64,000 nt of DNA. It comes from an uncultured Fibrobacterota bacterium. Its GTDB lineage: Bacteria; Fibrobacterota; Chitinivibrionia; Chitinivibrionales; FEN-1185. Location of the stretch: assembly GCA_963753345.1 (NCBI GenBank), contig CAVWBU010000015.1, positions 120,203 to 184,202 of the forward strand, written 5' to 3'. Position 1 is the first letter of the stretch, and each line of letters begins with the position of its first letter. The notes below the pieces were generated by a model. That model ran no database searches. It had not been told where the DNA came from and saw only the letters and a list, made by a program, of their open reading frames with translations. The position numbers and the translations under genes were made by a program. Positions 4,348 to 64,000 of this stretch are shown piece by piece.

Positions 4348-5439
4348 CTAGGGCACAAGGTGCCTGAACGCGCCGTCCCGTGCTCCCACCACGTAAACGC
4401 CGGACGGAAGGCGCGCCAGGGCAGCGGAAAGGGACGAGTGTGCCGGAACGTCAAGCGCACAGGCAAGTCTGCCGTCCAGATGATAAAGACGCAGGCGCCC
4501 ATTGACAATACGCGAAGCAGCATGCACGGCGGGCGTCTGGACCTGCAGACCGATATCCGATGCGGAAACAAACACCGGGGCGGCGACGAGAATATCGTCG
4601 CTGGTCGCGCTCACGCCCAGGGAAACTTTGTACGCGCCCGTGTCTTTTGCAATGAGCACCTGGCCGGTGCCCCCCGAAACAGCAGCCACCGGAATTCCCT
4701 GACAGTACCATTGGTACAGCGACGCTCCAGCCGGCGCCTCAAGCCTGTTCTTCTGCTTAACGATCTTGAGCGTGTCGCCCATGAGCATCCCGTACACTTT
4801 CTGGGCCAATTTCAGGTAGCCGGCGGCGGTCGGATGAATGCCGTCTGCAAACAGACCGGGTTGGCCGCTCATCCAGGTGAAAAGATCAATGAGCGGGATT
4901 CCTTTTGCGAGAGCAACGGTCTTGATTTTCGGCAAAATCTGGTAGTGAATCACCATGCTGTCGATAAAAAGGATCGAGCTATACGCGGGCAGCGGATAGC
5001 ATGCCCACACCTTGGGGTTGGAAGAAATGGCGGCGAACGTGTCGACCATTGCCTCGTAATCGCCCACGAATTCGTCCTGGTGGGACGGCCAGTTGTCAAC
5101 CCCGCCGCTCGACTTTGAATCGTTGGTGCCGAGTTCGATGATCACGATTTTCGGCAGAAAGGCCATGGCGGCGGCAAATTCCGTGACGCCGAATGTCCAG
5201 TAGGGCTTGTTGCCGTTCTTGAGCATGGTGGCGCCGGCAACCCCGCAGTTGAGCACGTTGTATCCGGGACCAAGCATCTGCCCGAGCCGCGCCGGATAGC
5301 TCGCGGTGTCGCGGCCGGCCAGCCCGGTGCCGTCGGTTATGCTGTTGCCCACGCACGAGACATGGATGGTGTCGGCCGCGTGGGCGGAAAAGCCGGCGCA
5401 GAAGAAAAGAAAGGTGAGCGCAATAGCGAAGGTTTTCAT
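4348..5439 (-). CDS. Secreted SGNH/GDSL hydrolase (esterase) with C-terminal sorting-like domain
   Basis: Signal peptide MKTFAIAL...AHA; blocks GNSIT, LGTND and DGIHP; C-terminus RLRLYHLDGRL...LPSGVYVV. Start set at ATG 5439. Confidence 0.85.
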   Translation of the reverse strand: MKTFAIALTFLFFCAGFSAHAADTIHVSCVGNSITDGTGLAGRDTASYPARLGQMLGPGYNVLNCGVAGATMLKNGNKPYWTFGVTEFAAAMAFLPKIVIIELGTNDSKSSGGVDNWPSHQDEFVGDYEAMVDTFAAISSNPKVWACYPLPAYSSILFIDSMVIHYQILPKIKTVALAKGIPLIDLFTWMSGQPGLFADGIHPTAAGYLKLAQKVYGMLMGDTLKIVKQKNRLEAPAGASLYQWYCQGIPVAAVSGGTGQVLIAKDTGAYKVSLGVSATSDDILVAAPVFVSASDIGLQVQTPAVHAASRIVNGRLRLYHLDGRLACALDVPAHSSLSAALARLPSGVYVVGARDGAFRHLVP

Positions 5440-5537
5440 AGACGAGTTACCTTGTAAATAGTATAACAAGAAACCGGCTTGGGTGCATGAGATTTTTTCT
5501 ATGCCTTGGCTGAGCTTGATATTTTTTTCAAAGGAAA

Positions 5538-5550
5538 GGGGAACGCCCAA
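5538..5550 (-). repeat. Possible truncated remnant of the family 1 5' end
   Basis: GGGGAACGCCCA matches the terminus of copy A, in a similar T-rich flank; only 12-13 nt. Confidence 0.35.
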
Positions 5551-5661
5551 TTTTTTTATTATTCTTTTATCCTTCTCTCGTACTTCCTCATAATTCCCTA
5601 ACCAAGAAATACTATTTTAGAAAGCTCGCCAACCATGCACTGTCATCGATCGGAGGCGTTT

Positions 5662-6339
5662 GTGAACATCATCGAAACGCGCGCGCTCACCAAGGACTAC
5701 CCCTTGGGGAACACCACGGTGCACGCTTTGCGGGGGATAGACCTTGCCATCGAGAAAGGCGATTTCCTCAGCATCGTGGGCCCGTCGGGAAGCGGCAAGA
5801 CCACGCTGCTCAACATCATCGGCTGCATCGATTTTGCCACGAAAGGCAGCGTGCGCGTGGGCGACCGGGAGATCACGTCGCTTGACGACCGGCAAATCAC
5901 CGACATGCGGCTGCACAAGATCGGATTTATCTTCCAGACGTTCAACCTGATTCCGGTGCTCAATGCCCTCGAAAATGTGGAGTTTCCGCTCCTTCTCATG
6001 AAGAACCGTTCAAAGGCAGACGTAAAGAAGAAAGCCGAAACGCTGCTTGACGAAGTGGGACTCAAGGACTATGGTAGGCACAAGCCCGCCGAACTTTCGG
6101 GCGGCCAGCGCCAGCGGGTCGCCATCGCGCGCGCGCTCGTGACCAATCCGGACATCGTCCTTGCCGACGAGCCCACGGCCAACCTCGACTCGGTGACCGG
6201 CGCCTCGATCCTCGACGCGATGCGGGAAATGAACAAACGGGAGCACACCACCTTCATCTTCTCAACGCACGACGCGAACGTGCTCAAATACGCAAGCCAC
6301 GTGATAAAAATCAAGGACGGCTGCATAAGCAGGGACTAG
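5662..6339 (+). CDS. ABC transporter ATP-binding protein (LolD/MacB-like)
   Basis: GPSGSGKT, LSGGQRQRVAIARAL, DEPTANLD; GTG start with GGAGG RBS. Confidence 0.93.
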   Translation: MNIIETRALTKDYPLGNTTVHALRGIDLAIEKGDFLSIVGPSGSGKTTLLNIIGCIDFATKGSVRVGDREITSLDDRQITDMRLHKIGFIFQTFNLIPVLNALENVEFPLLLMKNRSKADVKKKAETLLDEVGLKDYGRHKPAELSGGQRQRVAIARALVTNPDIVLADEPTANLDSVTGASILDAMREMNKREHTTFIFSTHDANVLKYASHVIKIKDGCISRD

Positions 6340-6342
6340 GGA

Positions 6343-7875
6343 ATGGACCTTGTTCTCAAGATCGCATGGCGCAACATCATGCGCCACAGGGGCAAGAGCC
6401 TTGTCATCGGCTTGATGCTGTTCGTGGGTGCATTTATCATGACGGTAGGCAACGGTGTGGTGTCGGGAATGGACGCCGGCCTCAGGAAAACGATTGTCAA
6501 CAGCTTCACGGGCGACATCGTCCTTATTTCGGACAAGCAGGAAAGCGACAACGTGTTGGATGTCTGGACCACATTCATGAACAAGCCCGTGGCGCCCGTT
6601 TACAATTACATCGACATTAAGAAAGAACTTGCTCGGCAGCCGTACATAGAACGCATTCTGCCGGCCGGAAAAAACCTTGCCATGGTGCTCAACGAGGAAG
6701 GCGGCATGCCGGGAAGCGCATATCTTGTCGGCATCGATTTCGCGCAATACGGCTCAATGTTTCCGGGCAATATCAACGTGGTTGAAGGCAGGCTTCCTGA
6801 TAAAGGGGAACATGGAGCGGTTGTGCCGGTCTGGGCGCGCAAGGAATTCGAGGCCTACACCAGCATGTGGTTCCTTTCCGAAGGCCATACGCTCGACACC
6901 GCCCTTCTCCCCAAGGAAGTGAAGCCCGACATCCCGTCCCTGTTGCCCAGGACCAGCGCCGTGCTTATGGGGTACAACGAAGACAATTCGACCACGGATA
7001 TCCGGCTCGACATCAAGGGTATCATCGAATACAAGGCGCTCAATTCGCTGTGGGGGAAGTTCGTGATTGTGGACATAGAATCGTATCGTCGTTGCTTCGG
7101 GTACTTTGCCGCGTCGGACAAGGTGGATCTATCGGACGACGAGAAAAGACTTTTTTCCATGAGCAGCGAGAATCTGGACGGTCTGTTCACCGCCGACGCA
7201 GTGACGGCCGGGGACCCCGGCGTTGCGCCGAAGAAGGCTGCACTAACACACCCGAAAGAGGTTGACAAAAAACCCTTAGATCTCGATGCGGGTGCCTACA
7301 ACCTGGTGTTCGTTCTCCTCAAGAAGGGGGAAAATCAGGCGCGGGCGCTTGCACGGCTTAATACGGTCCTCAAGGAGAAAAAGCTTGGCGTTCGCGCCGT
7401 CTCATGGAAGAAGGCGCTTGGCGTGGTGGGAAGCATGGCGACCTTGATAAAGGCAGCCCTGTTCATGTTTGTCATGTTTCTGTTCTTCGTGGTTATCATC
7501 ATCATCGTCAACACCCTGAGCATGGCGGCCATCGAGCGCACCGCCGAAATCGGCATGATGCGCGCCGTGGGCGCGAAAAAAGGCTTCATCTCAATGATGT
7601 TTCTTGCCGAGACTTCCATGCTGTCGTTTGTGTTCGGCGGTGCAGGCATCATCATCGGCATTGTCGGGGTCAACGTTCTTGCACTGTTCAATATCACCAG
7701 CACAAACGACATGGTCCAGCTTCTGTTCGGCGGCGACACGTTTCATCCGCTGCTCACGGCGCTGGACATTCTGCTGTCCGTTGTCCAGCTGGCCATCGTG
7801 ACGCTTATCGCGGTCGTGTATCCCGCGCGCGTTGCGCAAAGCATCACTCCGCTTGACGCGGTGGCGAGGGAGTAA
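6343..7875 (+). CDS. ABC transporter permease (FtsX/LolE-like)
   Basis: IAWRNI N-terminus, large periplasmic loop, ERTAEIGMMRAVG, three C-terminal TM helices. Confidence 0.9.
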   Translation: MDLVLKIAWRNIMRHRGKSLVIGLMLFVGAFIMTVGNGVVSGMDAGLRKTIVNSFTGDIVLISDKQESDNVLDVWTTFMNKPVAPVYNYIDIKKELARQPYIERILPAGKNLAMVLNEEGGMPGSAYLVGIDFAQYGSMFPGNINVVEGRLPDKGEHGAVVPVWARKEFEAYTSMWFLSEGHTLDTALLPKEVKPDIPSLLPRTSAVLMGYNEDNSTTDIRLDIKGIIEYKALNSLWGKFVIVDIESYRRCFGYFAASDKVDLSDDEKRLFSMSSENLDGLFTADAVTAGDPGVAPKKAALTHPKEVDKKPLDLDAGAYNLVFVLLKKGENQARALARLNTVLKEKKLGVRAVSWKKALGVVGSMATLIKAALFMFVMFLFFVVIIIIVNTLSMAAIERTAEIGMMRAVGAKKGFISMMFLAETSMLSFVFGGAGIIIGIVGVNVLALFNITSTNDMVQLLFGGDTFHPLLTALDILLSVVQLAIVTLIAVVYPARVAQSITPLDAVARE

Positions 7876-10591: not shown

Positions 10592-11338
10592 ATGAATTTG
10601 TTTGACATTCTTGTCATCGCCCAGCTTTCCCTTGCCGCCATTGTCTTCATGTTCCTCATGTTTATCAACGCTCCCTACGGTCGGTACGTTCGGAAAGGGT
10701 GGGGGCCGGCAATTCCGGCCCGGTTCGCATGGATGACCATGGAATTCCCCGCATTCTTTGTGATTGCATTTCTGGTCATTGCGAATGCGGAAAAGGCTGG
10801 ATTATTCGGCGTCCTGTTTCTTTTGATGTGGGAAGCGCATTATGTGTATCGCGTCTGGATATATCCGTTCTTAATCTCGTCTCCGAAAAAGCCGTTTCCG
10901 CTCGTGCTCGTGTTTTTTGCCATCTGTTTCAATACACTCAACGGCACCATAAATGGGGGCAGCCTCGTCGACATGGGCGCGTGGTACACGGCGCACCGGT
11001 GGGCCCTTGATCTTCACATGATTGTCGGATGTATTATGTTCGTTGCCGGGTTCGTCATTCATGCCCATTCCGATACACTGCTCCGGCATCTTCAACGCGG
11101 AGAATATGTCGTGCCTGGCGGCGGAATGTTCCGCTTTGTGTCAAGTCCGAATTACTTTGGAGAAATGGTCGAATGGACCGGATGGGCCGTGGCCACATGG
11201 TCTGTGGCGGGCCTGGCGTTTGCTGTCTTCACAATTGCGAACCTGCTACCCCGAGCGGTGAGCAATCACCGCTGGTATCAAAAAACCTTTTCGGAATATC
11301 CGGCCGATCGCAAAATCCTCATCCCGTTTCTCTGGTGA
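10592..11338 (+). CDS. 3-oxo-5-alpha-steroid 4-dehydrogenase (steroid 5-alpha reductase) family membrane protein
   Basis: APYGRY, AWMTME, PNYFGEMVEW, NLLPRAVSNHRWY, RKILIPF. Confidence 0.85.
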   Translation: MNLFDILVIAQLSLAAIVFMFLMFINAPYGRYVRKGWGPAIPARFAWMTMEFPAFFVIAFLVIANAEKAGLFGVLFLLMWEAHYVYRVWIYPFLISSPKKPFPLVLVFFAICFNTLNGTINGGSLVDMGAWYTAHRWALDLHMIVGCIMFVAGFVIHAHSDTLLRHLQRGEYVVPGGGMFRFVSSPNYFGEMVEWTGWAVATWSVAGLAFAVFTIANLLPRAVSNHRWYQKTFSEYPADRKILIPFLW

Positions 11339-55550: not shown

Positions 55551-56633
55551 ATGAAGAACCCCGTCTTTTTTCTCCCCGTTTCATTGGCCGAAAAGACTCC
55601 CGCGATCGAGGCCGGCCTGGCAAGGCTTCTTTCGGAAAGTGCCGTTTTGGGATGCGTTGACAAAGGCGATGTCGCGGTAATCAAGATGCATTTCGGCGAA
55701 GAGGGGAACACGGGGCATGTGGCGCCCGGCCATGTCGGCGTGATAAGCGGGCTTCTGCGGCGCACCGCCTCCGACGTGATCGTCGCGGACACCAACACGT
55801 TGTACAAGGGAAGAAGGACCTCCTCCGCAGAGCACGAGAAGCTCGCAATGGAGCACGGGTTTGTTGCCGAGCGCACCGGAGCGAGGCTCGTAGTGCCCGA
55901 CGAGCGGAACCCGGACAACTGTCACACGATCGAGGCGGCCGGGAAGTACGTGAAGAAGGCCAAGGTTTTGCGGCTGTACAGGGAGGCTCAGGCGCTTATC
56001 GGCGTCGCGCATTTCAAGGGTCATTTAATGACCGGCTTCGGCGGCGCGATCAAGAACATCGGCATGGGGTGCGCGTCGCGCGAGGGCAAGCTGGCGCAGC
56101 ACAGCACCGTGTGCCCGGTCGTGCGTAGCAAGAAATGCACCGGCTGCGGCGCATGCGAGGCCGTGTGCCCGGCGGACGCGGTTGCGGTTGTCAACGGTAA
56201 ATCGAAAATCAACCCTGCGAAATGCATCGGCTGCGCGAGCTGCATCGCGGCATGCACCTACGGCGCCATGGACGTCAACTGGGGCGCGGGAAGCGGCACC
56301 ATGACGGAGCGCATGGTCGAATACGCCGCGGCTGTTTTGCGCGGCAGGAAGAAAGCCGCGTATGTCAACTTCGCGCTGAAGATAACGGCCGAGTGCGACT
56401 GCCTCGCCAAGGACGATCCGCGCATCGTGGACGACGTCGGCATCTTCGCGTCGGCAGACCCGGTTGCGCTCGATCAGGCCTGTTTCGAGATGGTGAAGGA
56501 AAAAGCCGGGGGTATAGACGTCTTCAAGAAAGCTCACCCGGAACGGGACAGCCTCCAGCAGCTTGCGTATGCGGAAAAGCTTGGGCTCGGGTCTCGGTCG
56601 TACGAACTCGTAAGGGTGACACCGGCAAGTTGA
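55551..56633 (+). CDS. DUF362-type Fe-S protein with 2[4Fe-4S] domain
   Basis: IKMHFGE.GN, HFKGH..GGAIKNIGMGC, two CxxCxxCxxxC, CDC and DPVALDQA. Confidence 0.9.
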   Translation: MKNPVFFLPVSLAEKTPAIEAGLARLLSESAVLGCVDKGDVAVIKMHFGEEGNTGHVAPGHVGVISGLLRRTASDVIVADTNTLYKGRRTSSAEHEKLAMEHGFVAERTGARLVVPDERNPDNCHTIEAAGKYVKKAKVLRLYREAQALIGVAHFKGHLMTGFGGAIKNIGMGCASREGKLAQHSTVCPVVRSKKCTGCGACEAVCPADAVAVVNGKSKINPAKCIGCASCIAACTYGAMDVNWGAGSGTMTERMVEYAAAVLRGRKKAAYVNFALKITAECDCLAKDDPRIVDDVGIFASADPVALDQACFEMVKEKAGGIDVFKKAHPERDSLQQLAYAEKLGLGSRSYELVRVTPAS

Positions 56634-56677
56634 CAAGAAAGATGTAGGACCCCATTATTTGATTTCGAAATATCAGC

Positions 56678-58660
56678 TTACCGTTTGACCAAAAACGTCT
56701 TGAGAAACAGCGCCTCGCAGCAATCGAGATAATCCTGGTTCGCCTTCCGCCGCATGCCGTGGCCCTCGTTGCGCGCTACAATCGACCACACCGTTCCGTT
56801 GTTCGCGCGCACCGCAGCCGCCATCCGTTCCGATTCACTGAGAGGAACCCGCGGGTCGTTTGCCCCCTGAAATATCAAAAGCGGGCGCGTGATGCGGGAG
56901 GCGTTTGTCAAAGGGGAAATACGCAGAAGGAACGCGCGCATGTCCGGATCGCGTTCGTCGCCGTACTCCACGCGGCGCAGGTCGCGGCGGTAGGCCGACG
57001 TGCGCTCGAGGAACGTAACGAAATTGCATATTCCGTACAAATCGATCCCGGCCCGCAGGCTTTCGCCGTACCGGACAAGGGAGGCGAGCGCGACGTAGCC
57101 GCCGTACGATCCGCCCGACACAGCCGCGGCCGACGCGTCCATGTCCGGCCTGTTCTTAACCCACCCAAGCAGCGCGCCGATGTCCTTCACCGCGTCCTCG
57201 CGCATGTACCCGTTGTCAAGCGACAGCCAGGCTTTGCCGTAGCCGCCCGAGCCGCGGATATTGGGAGCGAGTACGCACAGACCCAGCTCGCAAACGTCGA
57301 ACTGGATCTCGGGCCGGAAATAGGGCCAGAACTGGCTTTCCGGCCCTCCGTGAATGTCCACGAGCACTGCGAAGGGCCCCGGCCTGTTTTTTGGTTTGTA
57401 AACGAAACAGGGAACCAAACGCGGTTGCCCGCCGGCGCTGTCGAAAGTGGAATAACGGACGACCTCCGGCGTCACCAATGCGTTCGAGTCGAGACCGCCG
57501 AGTCCGCTTGCGGTCCAGCGGACAAGGGAGAAATCGGAAAGCCTCAGGGAGTACGCCTCCTCCGGCTGCACGGCAGTGGTGAGGGTCATGCCCAGGCGTT
57601 CTCCCGAAGGATCCAACCGCAGTCCGTTGATGCCGCCTTTGGGCAATCCGGGTATTTCCCTGAACCGGAACGTGGCGGTATTCATGATAAACACATGCGA
57701 ATATCCATGCTGGTTCGTCTGGAATGCCAGACATGAGCGGTCGCGGGACATGTCGATCTCGCGCACGTCCCAATGAATGTCCGCGGTGAGCACGGTCTCG
57801 CGCCGTGAGGCCAGGTCGAAGTAGCGGAGCGTACGGAAATCCGTGGCTTTGTCGGAGGTGAGAAAGATGCCACGTCCGCCCGGGCCCCAGGCGCCGACCT
57901 CCTGCGACACTGTGTCGAGGGTGTCGTGCAGGGGCGTGCATTCGCCCGTGCGCCAGTTGCACACGTAAAGATACGAGGCGGTCCGGGAAAGGTAGTGTGA
58001 GACAAGCAGAAGGCTGTCCCCAGGTGACCAGTCTTCGACCGACCACGATCCGGTCCTCGCAAGTACGGGCCCGGCGAGCGCGGGGTTGCGGACATCGCAC
58101 ACGTAAACGTCGAAATCGACCCCGTTGCGCCTGTTGCTCTGGAACGCGAATCGGTCGCCGGCATTCGACCACACGATGCCCTCGTTCTGCCATTTTCCGT
58201 CGGTGATGCGCACCGGCGCGGCTGAGTCGAGGAACAAAGAGTAAATCTGGAAATTTTCGTCGCCGGCGCTGTCTTTTGTAAACAGCAACGTCCGGCGCAG
58301 GGGATCGGGACACACTGCAACGGTCGTGACCGGCTCGTTGAGAAAGGTGAGCTGCCGCAGCGGCGCTCCCGGCGCAGGAGCGAAATGGATCTGGTTTATC
58401 TCCCCAACGCGCGAAACAACGATCATCCCGTCTCCCCCCGACGCCCATCCGGCAAAGGTGGCGAAATTCCAATTCCGGTAGCGCGAGACGGCCCGGGCAA
58501 TCGAATCAGGAATGGGGGGGATGCTGCGCACAACGAGCGAGGGTGGCGGTGTAACGGAACTGGTGGAATTGACGCAGGAGAACAGTACATGCGTCGAAAC
58601 TGCGGCAAGCGCAAAAAGAACGGCGCAACGGGTTAAGAGTAAAATTCGGTGAAGGTGCAT
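56678..58660 (-). CDS. S9 family (prolyl oligopeptidase-like) peptidase, probable lipoprotein
   Basis: Lipobox-like LFSC, beta-propeller, HGGPE, GGSYGG, GANDPRV and EGHG. Confidence 0.92.
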   Translation of the reverse strand: MHLHRILLLTRCAVLFALAAVSTHVLFSCVNSTSSVTPPPSLVVRSIPPIPDSIARAVSRYRNWNFATFAGWASGGDGMIVVSRVGEINQIHFAPAPGAPLRQLTFLNEPVTTVAVCPDPLRRTLLFTKDSAGDENFQIYSLFLDSAAPVRITDGKWQNEGIVWSNAGDRFAFQSNRRNGVDFDVYVCDVRNPALAGPVLARTGSWSVEDWSPGDSLLLVSHYLSRTASYLYVCNWRTGECTPLHDTLDTVSQEVGAWGPGGRGIFLTSDKATDFRTLRYFDLASRRETVLTADIHWDVREIDMSRDRSCLAFQTNQHGYSHVFIMNTATFRFREIPGLPKGGINGLRLDPSGERLGMTLTTAVQPEEAYSLRLSDFSLVRWTASGLGGLDSNALVTPEVVRYSTFDSAGGQPRLVPCFVYKPKNRPGPFAVLVDIHGGPESQFWPYFRPEIQFDVCELGLCVLAPNIRGSGGYGKAWLSLDNGYMREDAVKDIGALLGWVKNRPDMDASAAAVSGGSYGGYVALASLVRYGESLRAGIDLYGICNFVTFLERTSAYRRDLRRVEYGDERDPDMRAFLLRISPLTNASRITRPLLIFQGANDPRVPLSESERMAAAVRANNGTVWSIVARNEGHGMRRKANQDYLDCCEALFLKTFLVKR

Positions 58661-58774
58661 GAGAGGAAAAATAGCGTCCGGCAGGCCTATTGGGCGAAGC
58701 AGTTTCGGCGGAGAGGAGGGAGGTCAGAGATCAGCAACGTGTGCGGTCGTACGGTAGCGTACGGTGAGAATTGA

Positions 58775-58868
58775 CCACAACGTGCGCCGCATTGCACAAA
58801 GACGCGGCCTATCAATACATTCAACAATCCGACAGGTCAGCCGCGCTTTTGTGCTGCGGCTGTTGTGT
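58775..58868 (-). other. attC-like recombination hairpin
   Basis: Minus strand: ACACAAC-a-GCCGCA-GCACAAA-..-CGCGGC ... GCCGCG-..-TTTGTGC-aa-TGCGGC-gcac-GTTGTGG. A 94-bp imperfect inverted repeat bounded by AAC/GTT with unpaired bases. Confidence 0.6.
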
Positions 58869-59363
58869 TCCCCGTCTTGCGGTACATTGCGGTGAGGCAA
58901 AGGGCGGGGCCAAATTCGGCCCCGAGTTGCCGTTTGTTTCTTATTCCTTAACCGTTTCGCGCACAGTTATTACATCCTCAATTAATTCTATTTTAGCAAT
59001 TATATTTCAGCCATTTTAACCCGCATGGCGTTGTTCCATTGAGCAATGGAATGACGGCCATGTGCAGGTTGGGCGCAGTTCGCGGATGCGAATTGCGCTG
59101 GGTGTTTAGATTTGTTTTATTGCCTTTCGCACCGCCAGCATGGCGGTGCTTTCATGCGCAAAACGGATTTAATTCATTCGCGAGCGGCTATAAGTTTAGA
59201 CATTCAATCCTAAATCTCGTCTTTTCCCGCTCGTGAATATAATTATTAGTCAGTTAACAAACGGCAATTGAACACGAACTACATCATGCCTGCCACTCAA
59301 ACACAAATTGCCCGATAGCGGACAATCAACCATTCCGAACCCGTTTTCTGGCCTTTTCATGGC

Positions 59364-59370
59364 ATACAAC
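59364..59370 (-). other. attI-like core site (GTTGTAT)
   Basis: Lies about 24 bp downstream of the recombinase stop codon and is complementary (6/7) to the ACACAAC box of the attC-like hairpin. Confidence 0.4.
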
Positions 59371-59393
59371 GCTCCTTTAGTCTGCCCATCTCT

Positions 59394-60662
59394 TCAGGAA
59401 ACGTTCAAGGAGGCAAGCGGACTTCTGATTTTTGCAATCTCCTCTCTGCTGACATGCGTGTAAATTTGGGTGGTCTTGATGCTCGAATGGCCGAGCAGCA
59501 CCTGTATTTGACGGAGATCAACGCCTTGCTCAAGAAGGTGCGTGGCGTAACTGTGCCGTAAGGAATGAATACCTCCTCGGCGCTGGATACCGGCCTTCTT
59601 GCACGCATTGTCATAAATCTTTTCTACGGTTCGTGAAGGATAGGGTCGTCCTTTTTCCGAGCCTTCAAAGAAATAAACCAGATCGGAGTTTCTTGCCAGG
59701 TATCGCCGGATCGGCAGTACCATGCATTGATCGAGCGGCATGTCGCGCTCCTTTGATCCCTTGCCATGAATTCGTATGACTGCGCGGTCCCAGTTGATAT
59801 CGTTTGGCTTCAACATGACGATTTCATTCAATCGCAGGCCGCAGCCATAGGCCAGCACAAGGACCAACTTATGTTTGGGATTGGATGCAGCCTCAAGGAG
59901 CTTTTGCACATCTCCTTGTCCGTAAACCTTTGGAAGACTCTTGCCAACCTTCATGCGAGGTAATCCGGAAACAGCTTCCGCGTTGCCGACAACTTTGCTG
60001 TAAAAAAAAGAAATCGCGGCTGCGGCGAGGTTTACCGTTCGGGGAGCCAACCCTCTGTCCGATTTGAGGTGCAGCAAATGGGTCTTTATCCTATCATCGT
60101 CTGTGGGTGCAGGGTGTCTGCCTAGGACTTCAAGATACCGCCTTACCGCGTTGCTGTAAATGGCCAGGGTTCTTTGACTGAAATTTTGTACCTTCAATTC
60201 TTTGGACAGGCGAGAGATCCATTGGTCCAGTTCGGGCTTCCAGTTTGTCGTGGGATTGCAATAGATAGTCTTCTTTGTTTCAGGCAAGGCAGCCGGAATT
60301 TGCGGTACTGTATCGCTCGAATTGATGGGAGTTTCAATCCGATTCTTACGTGTGGGGACCTCTGATGGCTGTCCGGATGGCTTACTCAGCGCCGCCAGGT
60401 GCTTTTCCGACCGCGCCACGGTCTCGTAAAACATCACCAGGGGCTGCCGGACGTCGTTCTGTTGCCTCCCGATGAACGAAAGCAACTTGTCGACGTCGAT
60501 GTCCCTCGGGTTCCCCGGATTTTCCGATAGAAACTTATTGACAATGGCATAATGGAACCGCGAAAGGTTCTGACCGATCCCGCGCGCGGTCAATTCGCGT
60601 GACAACTTCTTGAGCCAGACTTCTCGCCATTCGTCATTTGTGGTAGGGCTGGTCGTTTCCAT
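59394..60662 (-). CDS. Tyrosine recombinase (integron-integrase-like, no IntI insertion, duplicated N-terminal domain)
   Basis: YGCGLRLNE (R), GKGSKER (K), HSLRHSYATHLL (HxxR), LLGH and TTQIYTHV (Y). Start set at ATG 60662. Confidence 0.92.
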   Translation of the reverse strand: METTSPTTNDEWREVWLKKLSRELTARGIGQNLSRFHYAIVNKFLSENPGNPRDIDVDKLLSFIGRQQNDVRQPLVMFYETVARSEKHLAALSKPSGQPSEVPTRKNRIETPINSSDTVPQIPAALPETKKTIYCNPTTNWKPELDQWISRLSKELKVQNFSQRTLAIYSNAVRRYLEVLGRHPAPTDDDRIKTHLLHLKSDRGLAPRTVNLAAAAISFFYSKVVGNAEAVSGLPRMKVGKSLPKVYGQGDVQKLLEAASNPKHKLVLVLAYGCGLRLNEIVMLKPNDINWDRAVIRIHGKGSKERDMPLDQCMVLPIRRYLARNSDLVYFFEGSEKGRPYPSRTVEKIYDNACKKAGIQRRGGIHSLRHSYATHLLEQGVDLRQIQVLLGHSSIKTTQIYTHVSREEIAKIRSPLASLNVS

Positions 60663-60885
60663 TCGGGGCCTGATCTCCCGCGGGTTGGAGTGGGGCGTGT
60701 CGCGGGGACTGGTTAAAAAACAATTCATGCGGTGTATGGATGCAAGGATAATTGCAAAAGCGGAAATGGACATATCAATCAATCCGGAGATTGCTTCGTC
60801 GCCTGCAGTTCCTCGCAATTACACCTCTTCGTGATTAGCCGAAAGAAAATTTGCCATCCGATATTCCGCAACAACAGCTCTCCGC

Positions 60886-61011
60886 GGGTGCCCCCACAAC
60901 ATAGGTTGATACTTGCCAGTTTACTACCTCGGGGTGCACCCAAGAGGGGGTAGCGCAGGACACCGCAGGCCGAAGGCCGAGGAGTCCGGAGCGAGGGGGA
61001 TACTTCCCCCC
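60886..61011 (+). repeat. Structured intergenic repeat family 2, copy 4
   Basis: Aligns with copies at 14164, 18028 and 40335. Confidence 0.8.
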
Positions 61012-61074
61012 TTGAAATCCGCTTTTCTCTTAGCCTTCAACAACCTCTCTTCAGATAGTATTTTATCTCTGCTC

Positions 61075-63552
61075 ATGAAAAACTCTCCATTTTTTCGTCA
61101 GAAAACAGGCGCATCGATCCGTCCAGTCCATGCATTTGTGCTTGTTGCCGCGTGGTCTGCTGCCAGCATGTTCCTTCTTTCCGGCGGCTGCGGAAACCCG
61201 GTTGCCGATAAGCGCATTGCGCCTCGCTTTGCCGCGCCTGCCGACACCGCTGTGTTTGTGAAGGACTCCGTTGTTGTCAAGGCGCACCCGCTCAATGCCG
61301 GGACCGGCGGCATGGATTTCGTGTGGTACCTTGACGGAAGCAAGCTGCCCGGCCGCTCGAAGACCGACAGCGCGTGCGGGCTGTACTTCGGCATCCGCGA
61401 CACCGGCGGCCACAGGCTGGTGGTGTTTGCAGAGGGGAACAACGGTTTATGGTCGGGTCCGGAAACTTCGACTGTTTACGTGCGTCTCGGCAGGCCTGTT
61501 TTGCATCTTTCCGTGCGCGACACGATGGTTTTCCCCGGCGAAACTCTTGCGGTTTTCCCGAAGGCGTTCGATACCAACGGGACAATCGCCGGGTTCTCCT
61601 GGCGCGTTGATTCCGGCGGCCCGGTGTTGTTCGGCCCGCAGGACACCCTTCGTTTCGTGTTTTCGAAACCGGGGAGCGCTCATCGCATTGTGGTGACCGC
61701 AATGGACGACGACAGCCTGGTGTCCGCTCCGGAAAGCCTTGCGGTGGGCATTCTGTTCGATCCTCCTTCGGTTGCGATCTCATGCGCCGGATCCGTGGCA
61801 ATTCACGACACCCTCATGCTGCACGCAGCCCGGCGCGACGCCTTCGGCACCACGGTACGATGGCTGTGGGCAAAGGGCCTCAGGGCGTTTACCGACACGA
61901 CGCTGGCGGATTCCTTCGGGGTTGTCTTCAACCGCTCCGATTCCGGTCTGCGGCACGTGTACGTGAAGGCCGTGGATACGCACGGTCAGGAATCGAATGT
62001 CGACTCCGCGGCCGTTGTGGTGAGGCTCATGGGGCCGGTGGTCGCCATCACGCAGGATACCATGGTGTTCGTAAACGACACGGTCACCATAGCCGCGCGC
62101 GGCGCTGACACAAACGGCTGGGTAGCCCGCTATGTGTGGGCGTTCGACTCCTTGTTTTCCGACACCACCACCGTGCCGTTCGTGCGGCACGCATGGCCGC
62201 TGGCCGACACTGGCCGGGTGAATCTTGTCCGCGTGAAGGCCATCGACAACGATTCCATCGAATCGCGGCCCGACACCATGAGGGTCACCTTGACATATGG
62301 GTTTCCTTACATTGGACGTCCCATACCGGACACGGCCATGCGCTGGACCGACACCATCACCGAACGGTGCATTGCCAACAGCACCGGCGGCAGAATAGAA
62401 AAGTACCTGTGGAATGTCGGCGGCGCGGGCTGGACCGACAGCTCGGAGTCCGATTCAATACGCATCACGGGAAAGCGGCACGGCCTTCTCACGGTGGTCG
62501 CAGGCGCGCGCGATGTCTCCGGGATTGTCGCGGTCGACACGTTTGTCATCAACTGCACTGCGGTGGTATGCTCGGTGTTTGTCATCAATCCCGGGCAGGC
62601 GGATACCCTGTACGTGCCGCTGTGCGGTCTTGGAAAGGGGAAAGTCCGGTTCATGTTCCTGGCCCAGCGCGCGGACCAGGTCGAAGACGCATTTGTCTAC
62701 AAGGTTTTCACGGGCACGTCGCCGTCGAGCATGAGCGCGCAGTTCAGCGGCACGGCCAATGCCACGATTCTTTCCGTGCTTGACACGGGGACATGCTTCT
62801 GGAAGGTGCTCGCCGTGGATTCGCATAACGACAGCGGGTGGACCGCCGGCAGCCAGGTGTGCCGCCTCCAGAAACGCATGTGCTTTGTCGGCCATTCCAT
62901 CGTGACCGGGCTCGGCGGCGATGCGGGGCGCGGCGGCTTCCGAAGGTCCGTGATCGACAGTCTGCGCGCGCGCGCAGGATACCCGCATGGAATAGGCTGC
63001 GAGGGCGCGCTGACAACAGGCCAGCTCAAACCCGATGATGACGATTCATGCATGGCAAGGATCGGCGCGATGGCGTTTGACATTTATGATTCGCTTGCCA
63101 TGTATCCCGATGTCAACGCGGATATTTGGGTGTTCATGAACGGCGTCAACGACGGATACACCAGGTTTCCCGGCTTTTTCTACTGCCAGAACACGATCGA
63201 CATGATGCATTCACGGAACCCGAACAGCGAGATCTACGTCATCAACGGCCTGCCGCTGCCTCACGACACCATGGATGCGCTGTACGTCATCGATTCCACC
63301 GACAGAAAAAACCTCTACACCTTCAACCGGGCGCTCGATTCCCTTGCAATCCAGCGATGCGCGTCCTGGGAGTCGCAGAAGCAGAACGGCGTATGGCTCG
63401 TGGACGCGTTTTCGCCCCTGTCGCTGCCGGACAGTTCGTACAACCCAGCCTACTTCTACGACTTCGTGCATCCGAACCAGTCCGGTTACGAGCTCATGGC
63501 GCAACGTATTCAAAGTACGATGAAATCCGCGAACAGCGCTTATTTCCGGTAG
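61075..63552 (+). CDS. Lipoprotein with tandem PKD/Ig-like repeats and C-terminal SGNH hydrolase
   Basis: Lipobox-like SGGC; repeats D.NG.I..F.W..D and V.A.D.D...S; GHSIVTG, NGVND and DFVHPN. Start set at ATG 61075. Confidence 0.8.
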   Translation: MKNSPFFRQKTGASIRPVHAFVLVAAWSAASMFLLSGGCGNPVADKRIAPRFAAPADTAVFVKDSVVVKAHPLNAGTGGMDFVWYLDGSKLPGRSKTDSACGLYFGIRDTGGHRLVVFAEGNNGLWSGPETSTVYVRLGRPVLHLSVRDTMVFPGETLAVFPKAFDTNGTIAGFSWRVDSGGPVLFGPQDTLRFVFSKPGSAHRIVVTAMDDDSLVSAPESLAVGILFDPPSVAISCAGSVAIHDTLMLHAARRDAFGTTVRWLWAKGLRAFTDTTLADSFGVVFNRSDSGLRHVYVKAVDTHGQESNVDSAAVVVRLMGPVVAITQDTMVFVNDTVTIAARGADTNGWVARYVWAFDSLFSDTTTVPFVRHAWPLADTGRVNLVRVKAIDNDSIESRPDTMRVTLTYGFPYIGRPIPDTAMRWTDTITERCIANSTGGRIEKYLWNVGGAGWTDSSESDSIRITGKRHGLLTVVAGARDVSGIVAVDTFVINCTAVVCSVFVINPGQADTLYVPLCGLGKGKVRFMFLAQRADQVEDAFVYKVFTGTSPSSMSAQFSGTANATILSVLDTGTCFWKVLAVDSHNDSGWTAGSQVCRLQKRMCFVGHSIVTGLGGDAGRGGFRRSVIDSLRARAGYPHGIGCEGALTTGQLKPDDDDSCMARIGAMAFDIYDSLAMYPDVNADIWVFMNGVNDGYTRFPGFFYCQNTIDMMHSRNPNSEIYVINGLPLPHDTMDALYVIDSTDRKNLYTFNRALDSLAIQRCASWESQKQNGVWLVDAFSPLSLPDSSYNPAYFYDFVHPNQSGYELMAQRIQSTMKSANSAYFR

Positions 63553-63647
63553 ACAGGGATGATTATTTGCATGATGTCAAGAGCAATGGATTAGTCATGC
63601 GATGAAGGGGTTAGCCATCCGCATTCCACAATCCGCAATCTGCAATA

Positions 63648-63682
63648 GAAAGGGCCCCGCGGCATTGCCGCAGGGCCCTTTC
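63648..63682. terminator. Hairpin between convergent genes (probable bidirectional terminator)
   Basis: GAAAGGGCCC-CGCGGC-ATT-GCCGCA-GGGCCCTTTC. Confidence 0.7.
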
Positions 63683-63706
63683 AGTCTGTTAATGCTACGC
63701 GTCCGC

Positions 63707-64000
63707 TCAGTGCGTGAGCACGATCTTCTTCGCGGGGCACGCTTCGCCGTTGACGGCAACCGTGACAAAGTAGACGCCGGCGGCGCGGATTCCCGCCTCA
63801 GCCCTTGGAGCGATTGAGACAGAATGCCATCCGGCGGGCTGGCGCAAGGCCGGAATTCGGCTCACCACCTGCCCGTGGGCGTTGAGGATGTCGATCACAA
63901 CGTCCAAACGCCGGGCAGGTAGTACTTGACAAGATGGCCGGCCGTGTAGACCCGCGCGCCCATCGCCCCGCCCGAAAGCGCATTCGGCAGCGCCGGATTT
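63707..64000 (-). CDS. C-terminus of a secreted protein (sorting/FlgD-Ig-like C-terminal domain), apparently frameshifted near 63908
   Basis: ..HLVKYYLPG | LDVVIDILNAHGQVV..QPAGWHSV..AAGVYFVTV..KKIVLTH; the gene starts beyond the window. Confidence 0.65.
   Translation of the reverse strand, partial: KSGAAECAFGRGDGRAGLHGRPSCQVLPARRLDVVIDILNAHGQVVSRIPALRQPAGWHSVSIAPRAEAGIRAAGVYFVTVAVNGEACPAKKIVLTH

Follow-up and report, generated by a model that had tools for sequence, protein, structure and literature searches.

The DNA under study is a 64,000-nucleotide stretch (the window) of contig C15 of an uncultured Fibrobacterota bacterium, in which a tyrosine recombinase gene on the minus strand is followed by a single cassette that ends in an imperfect hairpin. 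Comparison of assemblies defined the boundaries of this cassette, revealed variable occupancy of the site and covariation within the hairpin, located arrays of similar hairpins beside homologous recombinases, and set the hairpins apart as a class of site distinct from the canonical attC. From these sequence comparisons we consider it probable that the locus is an integron-like platform, parallel to the canonical integron, which is run by a recombinase lacking the insertion (I2) of integron integrases (IntI). The platform would comprise the gene for the recombinase, an attI-like site whose core is TAGTT, and a single cassette of 498 nt, non-coding and ending in a hairpin, with the insertion-less recombinase as the presumed catalyst.

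The source genome (G000) is a 4.5 Mb metagenome bin, 94% complete with 4.8% contamination, to which contigs C16, C18, C24, C25 and C27, among others, also belong. It was analyzed within a comparison set of 41 related genomes, G000 included, which are metagenome bins or single representatives; as these relatives are kin, counts over them are not independent. Occupancy of the site in other samples was read from public contigs (not reads) of four runs from two studies, placed on 57500-61200 of the window. Runs X2 and X3 are peat metagenomes, X5 is from sediment and X1 is the probable source run. Such contigs demonstrate presence and linkage, and a gap in them means absence from the contigs only, not from the samples.

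Cassette boundaries and variable occupancy

A 503-bp block of the window (58779-59281) recurs at C16:81296-81798 with 99.6% identity, and the sequences to either side of the two copies are unrelated. In the minus-strand direction the block opens with T-A-G-T-T-C-G-T-G and closes with ...G-C-G-C-A-C-G-T-T. Its left end is the TAGTT core (59281-59277), which stands about 113 nt past the recombinase stop and forms the left cassette junction, and its right end, the right cassette junction, is the GTT (58779..58781, minus strand) within the GTTGTGG word at the 3' foot of the hairpin, after which the window continues with GTGG and C16 with CGTG. With the exchange taken at G|TT on both sides (TAG|TT on the left), the mobile cassette extends on the minus strand from 59278 to 58781, that is, over 498 nt. 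The initial annotation had placed the attI-like crossover at a GTTGTAT word and proposed an excised circle of 58781-59369. The word does stand at 59370-59364, but it was rejected as the crossover because the block of identity with C16 begins at 59281, 83 nt further on; a circle should accordingly be about 58781-59278. The remainder of that description, a single cassette of about 500 nt without a long open reading frame (ORF) and a recombination core downstream of the gene, held up. The array strand of the cassette contained no ORF of at least 60 aa, and the C16 comparison identified the 3' GTT of the hairpin as the cassette boundary. Promoter and terminator scans of the cassette gave counts not above those of shuffles, and a search of window positions 56000-64000 against Rfam returned no family at E<=1 beyond chance small nucleolar RNA and microRNA rows.

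Contigs from the public runs located the same two junctions. In both X2 and X3, the side of the locus carrying an S9-family peptidase was covered up to 58783 and the recombinase side from 59277, with a depth of 0 over 58864-59235. The X2 contig reaching 58783 continues for 356 bases unlike the window, and the recombinase-side contigs of X2 and X3 stop at 59277. One X5 contig carried the cassette from 59049 to 58777 followed by 84 bases of a third flank, and a second X5 contig followed the recombinase side to 59272 before entering unlike sequence. Every contig break or divergence falls on the two cores. No contig joining both flanks directly was found among the public contigs of the four runs. 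The expectation of variable content at the site was therefore borne out across samples, as flanks without the cassette in X2 and X3 and as the cassette on a third flank in X5. Within the bin itself, window positions 59278-64000 correspond to C25:1-4724 at 99.56% identity, so that C25 begins at the core (59278), and the recombinase protein is identical on C15 and C25; this duplicate of the window end is most simply a second strain in the bin.

A second shared cassette, of 764 bp and consisting of an NYN gene and a hairpin, was found at C16:82797-83560 and C27:350883-351646 with 99.7% identity, which extends from T|AGGCGCAAT on the left as far as GTTG on the right. Both duplicated cassettes therefore end at G|TT words with an AAC...GTT hairpin at the 3' end, as integron cassettes do. 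Each unit has one hairpin, at its 3' end; hairpin-dependent HUH transposons (IS200/IS605 and their miniature derivatives) are marked by a subterminal hairpin at either end together with a Y1 transposase in the genome. The left flank of the C16 copy of the 498-nt cassette has 21 bases, ending in TAGTT, that are identical with a site downstream of a recombinase homolog on contig C40 of genome G002, and because of these shared bases both known insertion sites of this cassette are taken as sites of this recombinase family. Synteny of C16 with G002:C40 was considered and rejected, as just one 91-bp hairpin match was found.

The region between the stop codon and the core (59282..59393, minus strand) is attI-like, with an inverted repeat at 59327-59306; homologous loci also carry inverted or direct repeats there. 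On the other side of the cassette, a second ACGTTG word (58735..58740, minus strand; direct repeat D5) lies 43 nt past the crossover and may be a remnant of an older site. A 23-nt motif, CTCACCGnAnnGTACCGnAnGAC, was observed before the hairpin at 58896-58874 and after the crossover at 58768-58746, and again after crossovers on C41 and at the end of C27. Many cassettes also open with a common leader, ..CAAT(A/T)AA.. and then ..AAATAGCCGCCGCCGAAA.. (e.g. L010:14735-14790, and after the core in loci L033 and L034).

Hairpin sites and their arrays

The hairpin, which the initial annotation had described as imperfect and running from ACACAAC to GTTGTGG (58868-58775), measures 94 nt on the minus strand and reads CACAAC-A-GCCGCA...TGCGGC-GCAC-GTTGTG. 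It folded better than shuffles on both strands, with a free energy as DNA of -25.0 kcal/mol on the minus strand (z -2.6, 2 of 200 shuffles as good) and -24.2 kcal/mol on the plus strand (z -3.6, 0 of 200). Its R and L stems are separated by a single nucleotide in the 5' arm but by 4 nt in the 3' arm, and the extra bases belong to the crossover (L'-R') arm. Canonical attC sites have a spacer of about 5 nt on both arms and their extrahelical bases on the R''-L'' arm, with the crossover in R', and it is these features that direct strand choice by IntI (PMC2727003). The description of the hairpin as attC-like therefore stands with respect to its 3' GTT, the cassette boundary, but canonical attC geometry does not apply to it or to the sites related to it.

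A covariance model (R1) was built from 12 aligned sites of four genomes, mostly from one family. The sites share a plan in which (CA)CAAC and a single base lead into a 6-bp stem, and the variable middle is followed by a 2-3-nt bulge, the partner stem, four bases and GTTG. Across the two 6-bp stems of this alignment, 83.3% of cells were paired versus 70.9 +/- 2.3 in shuffles (0 of 500 as high), and only 24-36% were paired when the partner was slid by 1-3 columns. The covariation score was 0.379 versus 0.170 in shuffles (0 of 500 as high). All six pairs of the L stem change on both sides, and five sites bear different, perfectly complementary L-box 6-mers. Such covariation of the L-box pairs from site to site indicates selection for pairing within the strand. 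With respect to sequence, the 5' arm is poorly conserved, and conservation is found in the 3' half of the site and the approximately 15 nt past the crossover (G(G/T)TG.CAAT). When 3' arms found by sequence were tested for pairing with their upstream region, z ranged from +0.9 to -3.0 over 14 distinct sites, with a combined Stouffer Z of about -5.6, a value which overstates independence, as some of the sites are close kin.

Hairpin sites of this kind are rare in the genome. The R1 model gave one match in the 64-kb window, the hairpin itself (82.8 bits, E 4.9e-17), which was a training sequence, and 13 matches at E<=1 in the 4.5-Mb genome, where 150 of 1689 candidates were scored. Other means of finding such sites were tried and rejected. 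An energy-only genome scan for AAC...GTT hairpins at ACGTT was not discriminating (1058 of 7875 passed, the top candidates being GC-rich coding sequence), and rule-based scans were either too strict, missing 4 of 5 known sites, or too loose, with the control strand approximately equal, so that they served for spotting by eye only.

Profile searches located related sites in G000 on C24, C16, C27, C41, C15 and C49. On C24, six sites stand downstream of a 42%-identical paralog of the recombinase (gene 5313-6590, core near 6775), all on the gene strand and ending near 10967, 11979, 13818, 14731, 16204 and 18034; a search of this array against Rfam returned no family at E<=5 beyond chance small nucleolar RNA and microRNA rows. 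Two sites follow the shared cassette on C16 and two lie at the end of C27, the others being on C41, C15, C49 and C16. The genes between sites encode AAA ATPase, DUF4238, short-chain dehydrogenase, AbiEi/AbiEii, Bro-N, NYN and Fic proteins. Matches to R1 at E<=0.001 were obtained in 10 of the 41 genomes. Similar hairpins occur beside homologous recombinases, with co-oriented R1 sites downstream of a homolog at six loci in five genomes (G000:C15, G000:C24, G006:C103, G002:C40, G014:C377 and G004:C32). At G004:C32, the five R1 matches, none of which was used in training, lie downstream of and on the same strand as a recombinase fragment (60735-61190). Cassettes are claimed here for the Chitinivibrionales clade only, a label which is that printed for one homolog and one locus.

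Loci of homologs were listed at 22 places, in nine of which the contig ends inside the gene or no more than about 250 nt downstream of it. Eighteen loci were read for a core; one had no downstream sequence and L002 duplicates L001, leaving 16 distinct loci, and by eye a [TG]AGTT core was present 70-260 nt past the stop in 11 of these. Inverted or direct repeats precede these cores and G(G/T)nGCAAT mostly follows them.

The recombinase, its relatives and the surrounding locus

The recombinase (59394..60662, minus strand; 422 aa) is IntI/XerA-like, as determined with Pfam, NCBIfam, structure alignments and Foldseek. Pfam returned Phage_integrase (1.6e-37) and Phage_int_SAM_4 (4.4e-15). Scores against five more specific models were below the respective cut-offs, at 215.9 bits against 220 for the archaeal XerA model of NCBIfam (XerA_Arch), 189.1 against 265 for the integron integrase model TIGR02249 (integrase_gron), 121.5 against 435 for NF011946, 171.8 against 335 for XerC and 160.5 against 330 for XerD. 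The TIGR02249 match was split into model positions 2-182 and 241-315. The top Foldseek matches were VchIntIA (2a3v) and Pyrococcus abyssi XerA (4a8e). The alignment with 2a3v was broken in two (query 153-315 with chain 10-174, query 345-418 with chain 246-319) and that with 4a8e was unbroken. The split of the 2a3v alignment leaves 29 residues where VchIntIA (IntI4) has 71; the recombinase thus lacks the I2 insertion, and its spacing from the catalytic lysine to HxxR is Xer-like. These results agree with the initial annotation, which had proposed an insertion-less, Xer-like recombinase distinct from IntI with its gene pointing towards the downstream element; the gene is indeed co-oriented with the cassette.

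The protein carries an extra N-terminal helical domain (residues 9-93; 60384..60638, minus strand), which from an AlphaFold model and self-alignment is probably a second core-binding (SAM-like) domain. The model, made from 40 homologs, had a mean pLDDT of 83.4 with blocks in residues 11-90 at 91-95, and predicts a disordered linker (97-136) tying this domain to the usual two domains. Residues 16-70 have 22% identity with the protein's own core-binding domain (pairwise E 2e-4). Pfam gave no match to the extra domain at E<=1, and BLASTP showed no similarity to the N-terminal domain of the canonical IntI encoded on C18 of the same genome (E 8.4). A stand-alone 122-aa ORF of G000 (C34:70205-70513) was observed to resemble only this extra domain (residues 4-106, 33%, E 1.2e-15). 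Smyshlyaev et al. (2021) noted two sequential core-binding domains in RitA recombinases as well, and they called the insertion "not fully conserved" within the simple tyrosine recombinases that form their 'integron-like' subgroup (PMC8138268).

Homologs at E<=1e-40 were present in 16 of the 41 genomes, G000 included, and G000 itself holds two full-length paralogs at 42% identity together with remoter Xer-like genes on C32 and C42. A scan of one genome per species provided 80 further loci (L051-L130) with 31-46% identity from many phyla, with insertion-less relatives in Bacteroidota, Ignavibacteriota, Chlorobi, Nitrospirae, Bacillota, Spirochaetes and DPANN archaea. In 31 of the 68 loci with at least 150 nt downstream, the pattern ATAxx..[GTA]AGTT occurred within 300 nt of the stop, as compared with 1 of 68 on the opposite strand of the same stretches. 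The core lay 72-282 nt past the stop in these 31 loci (72-137 nt in 30 of them), and its conserved form is ...ATAAAC-nAGTT-R..GCAA, about 90 nt past the stop. A crude hairpin scan downstream of 18 distant homologs gave 8 matches on the array strand and 21 on the other, and no arrays were detected by it; many of the contigs from other phyla end shortly after the gene. On a more tentative reading, the conserved core hints at a widespread, so far undescribed class of recombination platforms.

The locus is flanked by the S9-family peptidase gene (56678-58660) and by a gene for an 879-aa protein with a GDSL lipase domain (60913-63552). In G004, of the same genus, the S9 peptidase and 879-aa GDSL-domain genes are direct divergent neighbours with no recombinase between them, and in G001 the likeness to the window ends 26 nt upstream of the peptidase start. 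In view of these arrangements, the entire block from about 58.74 to 60.87 kb differs between the genomes by insertion or deletion. Upstream, its edge (60872/60871) falls on the end, at 60872, of a copy of a genome-wide repeat of about 140 nt (60872..61010, located by BLAST). The true start of the GDSL gene is probably later, because the long ORF begins inside this repeat, and the G004 homolog aligns only from residue 86.

The 140-nt repeat has 186 BLAST matches in G000, and its copies, about 95-186 in number, stand upstream of genes. No Rfam match was found for it; folding of its plus strand as RNA gave -62.4 kcal/mol (z -2.2). The depth of the public runs was observed to climb to several hundred over the repeat. 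On the minus strand of the window it ends in ...GGAGAGCAGTTG, and at least two GTTG words follow within 48 nt of the repeat end in 44 of the 95 copies reaching that end, versus 1 of 95 on the control strand. Tandem NNNNGTTG octamers, e.g. AAACGTTG and AATAGTTG, follow the repeat, with 131 runs of at least three in the genome. These octamers carry the same words as both cores, and the C27 copy of the NYN cassette abuts the same end of another copy of the repeat. The octamer runs may be insertion targets.

The canonical integron of the same genome and alternative readings

A canonical IntI gene is also present in G000, at C18:30734-32029, and matches TIGR02249 over the full model with 430.6 bits and with the insertion present. 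A divergent array on the other strand (C18:2316-28476) contains 22 canonical attC repeats, which by BLAST are 18 of one type and 4 of another, and which fold as AAC, 5 nt, GCTAA ... TTAGC, 5-6 nt, GTT with extra bases on the 5' arm, the canonical geometry. More canonical attC repeats were observed at the end of C26 and scattered elsewhere in the genome. With filters off, the best R1 match within 19 kb either side of the C18 intI gene had an E of 1.3, and one weak R1 row corresponded to a degenerate look-alike hairpin inside the C18 array. The canonical repeats of C18 had no occurrence by BLAST on C15, C24, C16 or C27. The two classes of site thus occupy separate arrays, and each class adjoins its own class of recombinase. 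The common leader seen in many cassettes of the insertion-less arrays was also observed within cassettes of the C18 array (L131 near 13450).

Several results weigh against the insertion-less recombinase as the enzyme of these sites, and the case as a whole rests on comparing assemblies of uncultured genomes. The C16 array is without an adjoining recombinase, the best tblastn match to a remnant beside it having an E of 0.071. Two homologs with long flanks (G003:C10 and G018:C1) have neither a core nor R1 matches on the contig. Eight of the 16 homolog-bearing genomes have no R1 match; all eight are from other families, which may reflect the sensitivity limit of a model trained mostly on one family. 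In the opposite direction, G005 (four matches) and G033 (one match) have R1-type sites without a homolog at E<=1e-40. The per-site duplex statistics are modest, with 5 of the 14 distinct sites at z above -1. Moreover, of the 10 genomes with R1 matches, 7 have a canonical IntI (not G002, G014 or G018) and 8 have an insertion-less homolog (not G005 or G033), so that co-occurrence cannot separate the two candidate enzymes. What supports the insertion-less enzyme is instead its adjacency to the sites, their geometry, and the observation that the shared cassette was inserted in both instances at a core of the insertion-less family.

These observations bear first on an explanation in which the hairpin-ended units would be standard integron cassettes that carry an unusual type of attC and are mobilised in trans by the IntI of C18, with the insertion-less recombinase as a bystander or with another job. 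A canonical IntI is encoded in G000 itself and scores over the cut-off in 15 of the 41 genomes, IntI accepts attC sites of very different sequence (PMC2095811), G005 and G033 have R1 matches but lack a homolog of the window recombinase, and a degenerate R1-like hairpin and the shared leader stand inside the C18 array itself. We nevertheless regard this explanation as unlikely, as the two site classes never mix in arrays and the R1 geometry, in which the spacer is 1 x 4 and the L'-R' arm carries the extra bases, runs counter to what directs strand choice by IntI (PMC2727003). Furthermore, at each of its two insertion points the 498-nt cassette adjoins a core of the kind found downstream of insertion-less genes, attI sites are used only by their own integrase (PMC2095811), and G002, G014 and G018 have R1 sites with no canonical IntI found; G002, which is 96% complete, holds six R1 matches and a homologous recombinase.

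A somewhat less likely explanation is an Xer-like system acting on duplex cores, similar to dif elements or plasmid dif modules, in which the palindromes would serve as cruciforms or as binding sites in duplex form rather than as folded single strands. It is by virtue of the I2 insertion that IntI can use single strands in folded form (PMC7790495), and an enzyme without it may for this reason act on double-stranded sites only, which also weighs against a folded-strand mechanism. The recombinase scored best against archaeal XerA, and conservation of the 3' half of the site and of about 15 nt past the crossover is what a sequence-reading enzyme needs. The covariation of the L box, with its five different yet perfectly complementary 6-mers, and the poor conservation of the 5' arm argue against duplex recognition, no 6-8-bp spacer with inverted arms is visible at the crossover, and the gene, which has a patchy distribution (16 of 41 genomes) and more than one copy, departs from the pattern of an Xer chromosome-dimer resolvase, for which one conserved copy in nearly all relatives is expected. 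The absence of any dedicated system, with the 503-bp sharing due to an assembly or strain-mixing artefact or to a hairpin element moved by an unrelated enzyme and with adjacency due to chance, is very improbable: the source is a metagenome bin with contamination and a C15/C25 overlap, and in run X1 no single public contig bridges 59277-59281, but outside the block the copies have just 5 bases in common, not enough to cause a false join, contigs from independent runs of a second study break or diverge at the same two points, a second cassette has the same kind of ends, and the core is conserved in other genomes with arrays recurring beside homologs.

The reading which we favour is therefore the integron-like platform run by the insertion-less recombinase. 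The cassette capture by a non-IntI recombinase proposed in the initial annotation stands in its gene, cassette, attC-like hairpin and the presence of a downstream core; its GTTGTAT core does not, the hairpin departs from the canonical attC, and the identity of the catalyst continues to be inferred. In such a platform the recombinase would bind the repeats ahead of the core, and strand exchange would take place at G|TT between the attI-like site and the GTT at the 3' foot of the folded hairpin on a circular cassette, both the exact position of cleavage and the single-stranded form of the substrate being presumed. This exchange would insert and excise cassettes in one orientation. The hairpin would be read by shape: a 6-bp R stem (AAC/GTT) and a 6-bp L stem enclose an internal loop of 1 x 4 nt, and the 3' arm bears a bulge of 2-3 nt. 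The missing I2 helix may be replaced in part by the tandem second core-binding domain. It is a more tentative proposition that an IntI relative which never had, or has lost, I2 captures cassettes through folded hairpins of their own geometry beside a canonical integron, as a member of a large family of many phyla.

With respect to known systems, the locus resembles integrons (class 1, the chromosomal integrons of Vibrio, and that of C18) in its recombinase of the Xer/IntI branch with a SAM_4 domain, in the site beside the gene, in its promoter-poor, one-orientation cassettes each ending in an imperfect AAC...GTT hairpin with exchange at G|TT, and in arrays with toxin-antitoxin or defence-like genes (AbiEi/AbiEii, Fic, NYN, AAA ATPase). 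It differs from them in an enzyme without I2, below the IntI cut-off and with an extra N-terminal helical domain, in a gene co-oriented with an array on its 3' side and a site after its stop codon, in the R1 spacer of 1 x 4 nt versus about 5 x 5-6 nt with extra bases on the crossover arm, and in sequence conservation of the 3' half of the site and of the cassette start. In integrons of the Treponema group, the integrase gene also has the orientation of the cassettes, as the window gene does in pointing towards its array, but the IntI insertion is kept. In Xer/dif systems a site may stand beside the gene, elements integrate by means of Xer, and plasmid dif modules are bounded by such sites. The window locus has in common with these a simple recombinase without an arm-binding domain or IntI insertion, an adjacent site and small modules; it is unlike them in its patchy, multi-copy gene and in sites that are 94-170-nt one-orientation hairpins with covarying stems, and no dif-like 28-bp site was recognised at the locus.

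The nearest described recombinases are the integron-like subgroup of Smyshlyaev et al. (2021), in which the insertion is likewise not always kept; RitA, with two core-binding domains, is a precedent for the domain layout of the window recombinase. The account of that subgroup describes no sites, cassettes or function for its insertion-less members (PMC8138268). Among described motifs, the DUF1874 motif is structured, recurs after successive genes in consecutive intergenic regions and has been proposed as an unusual attC, and class 1 attC sites are represented in Rfam by the Transposase-resistance motif (Weinberg et al. 2017, PMC5737381). Unlike R1 sites, the DUF1874 motif is multistem, and its entry in that report gives no integrase beside it (PMC5737381). 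A literature search, mostly at the level of titles and abstracts, found no hairpin-ended cassettes tied to an insertion-less recombinase.

The single-strand cassette chemistry of integrons has been held to be due to one innovation, the I2 insertion (PMC4792948, PMC7790495). If the more tentative proposition of capture by an IntI relative without I2 is true, single-strand cassette capture arose more than once, or before the I2 helix. A working insertion-less platform with its own hairpin geometry would have the canonical integron beside it as a built-in control and would allow a direct test of the origin of integron recombination, and it could add an orthogonal second tool for structure-specific recombination. 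Part of the cassette pool, which in these genomes includes toxin-antitoxin and defence-like genes, could escape integron finders that look for the IntI insertion and for attC sites of canonical shape.

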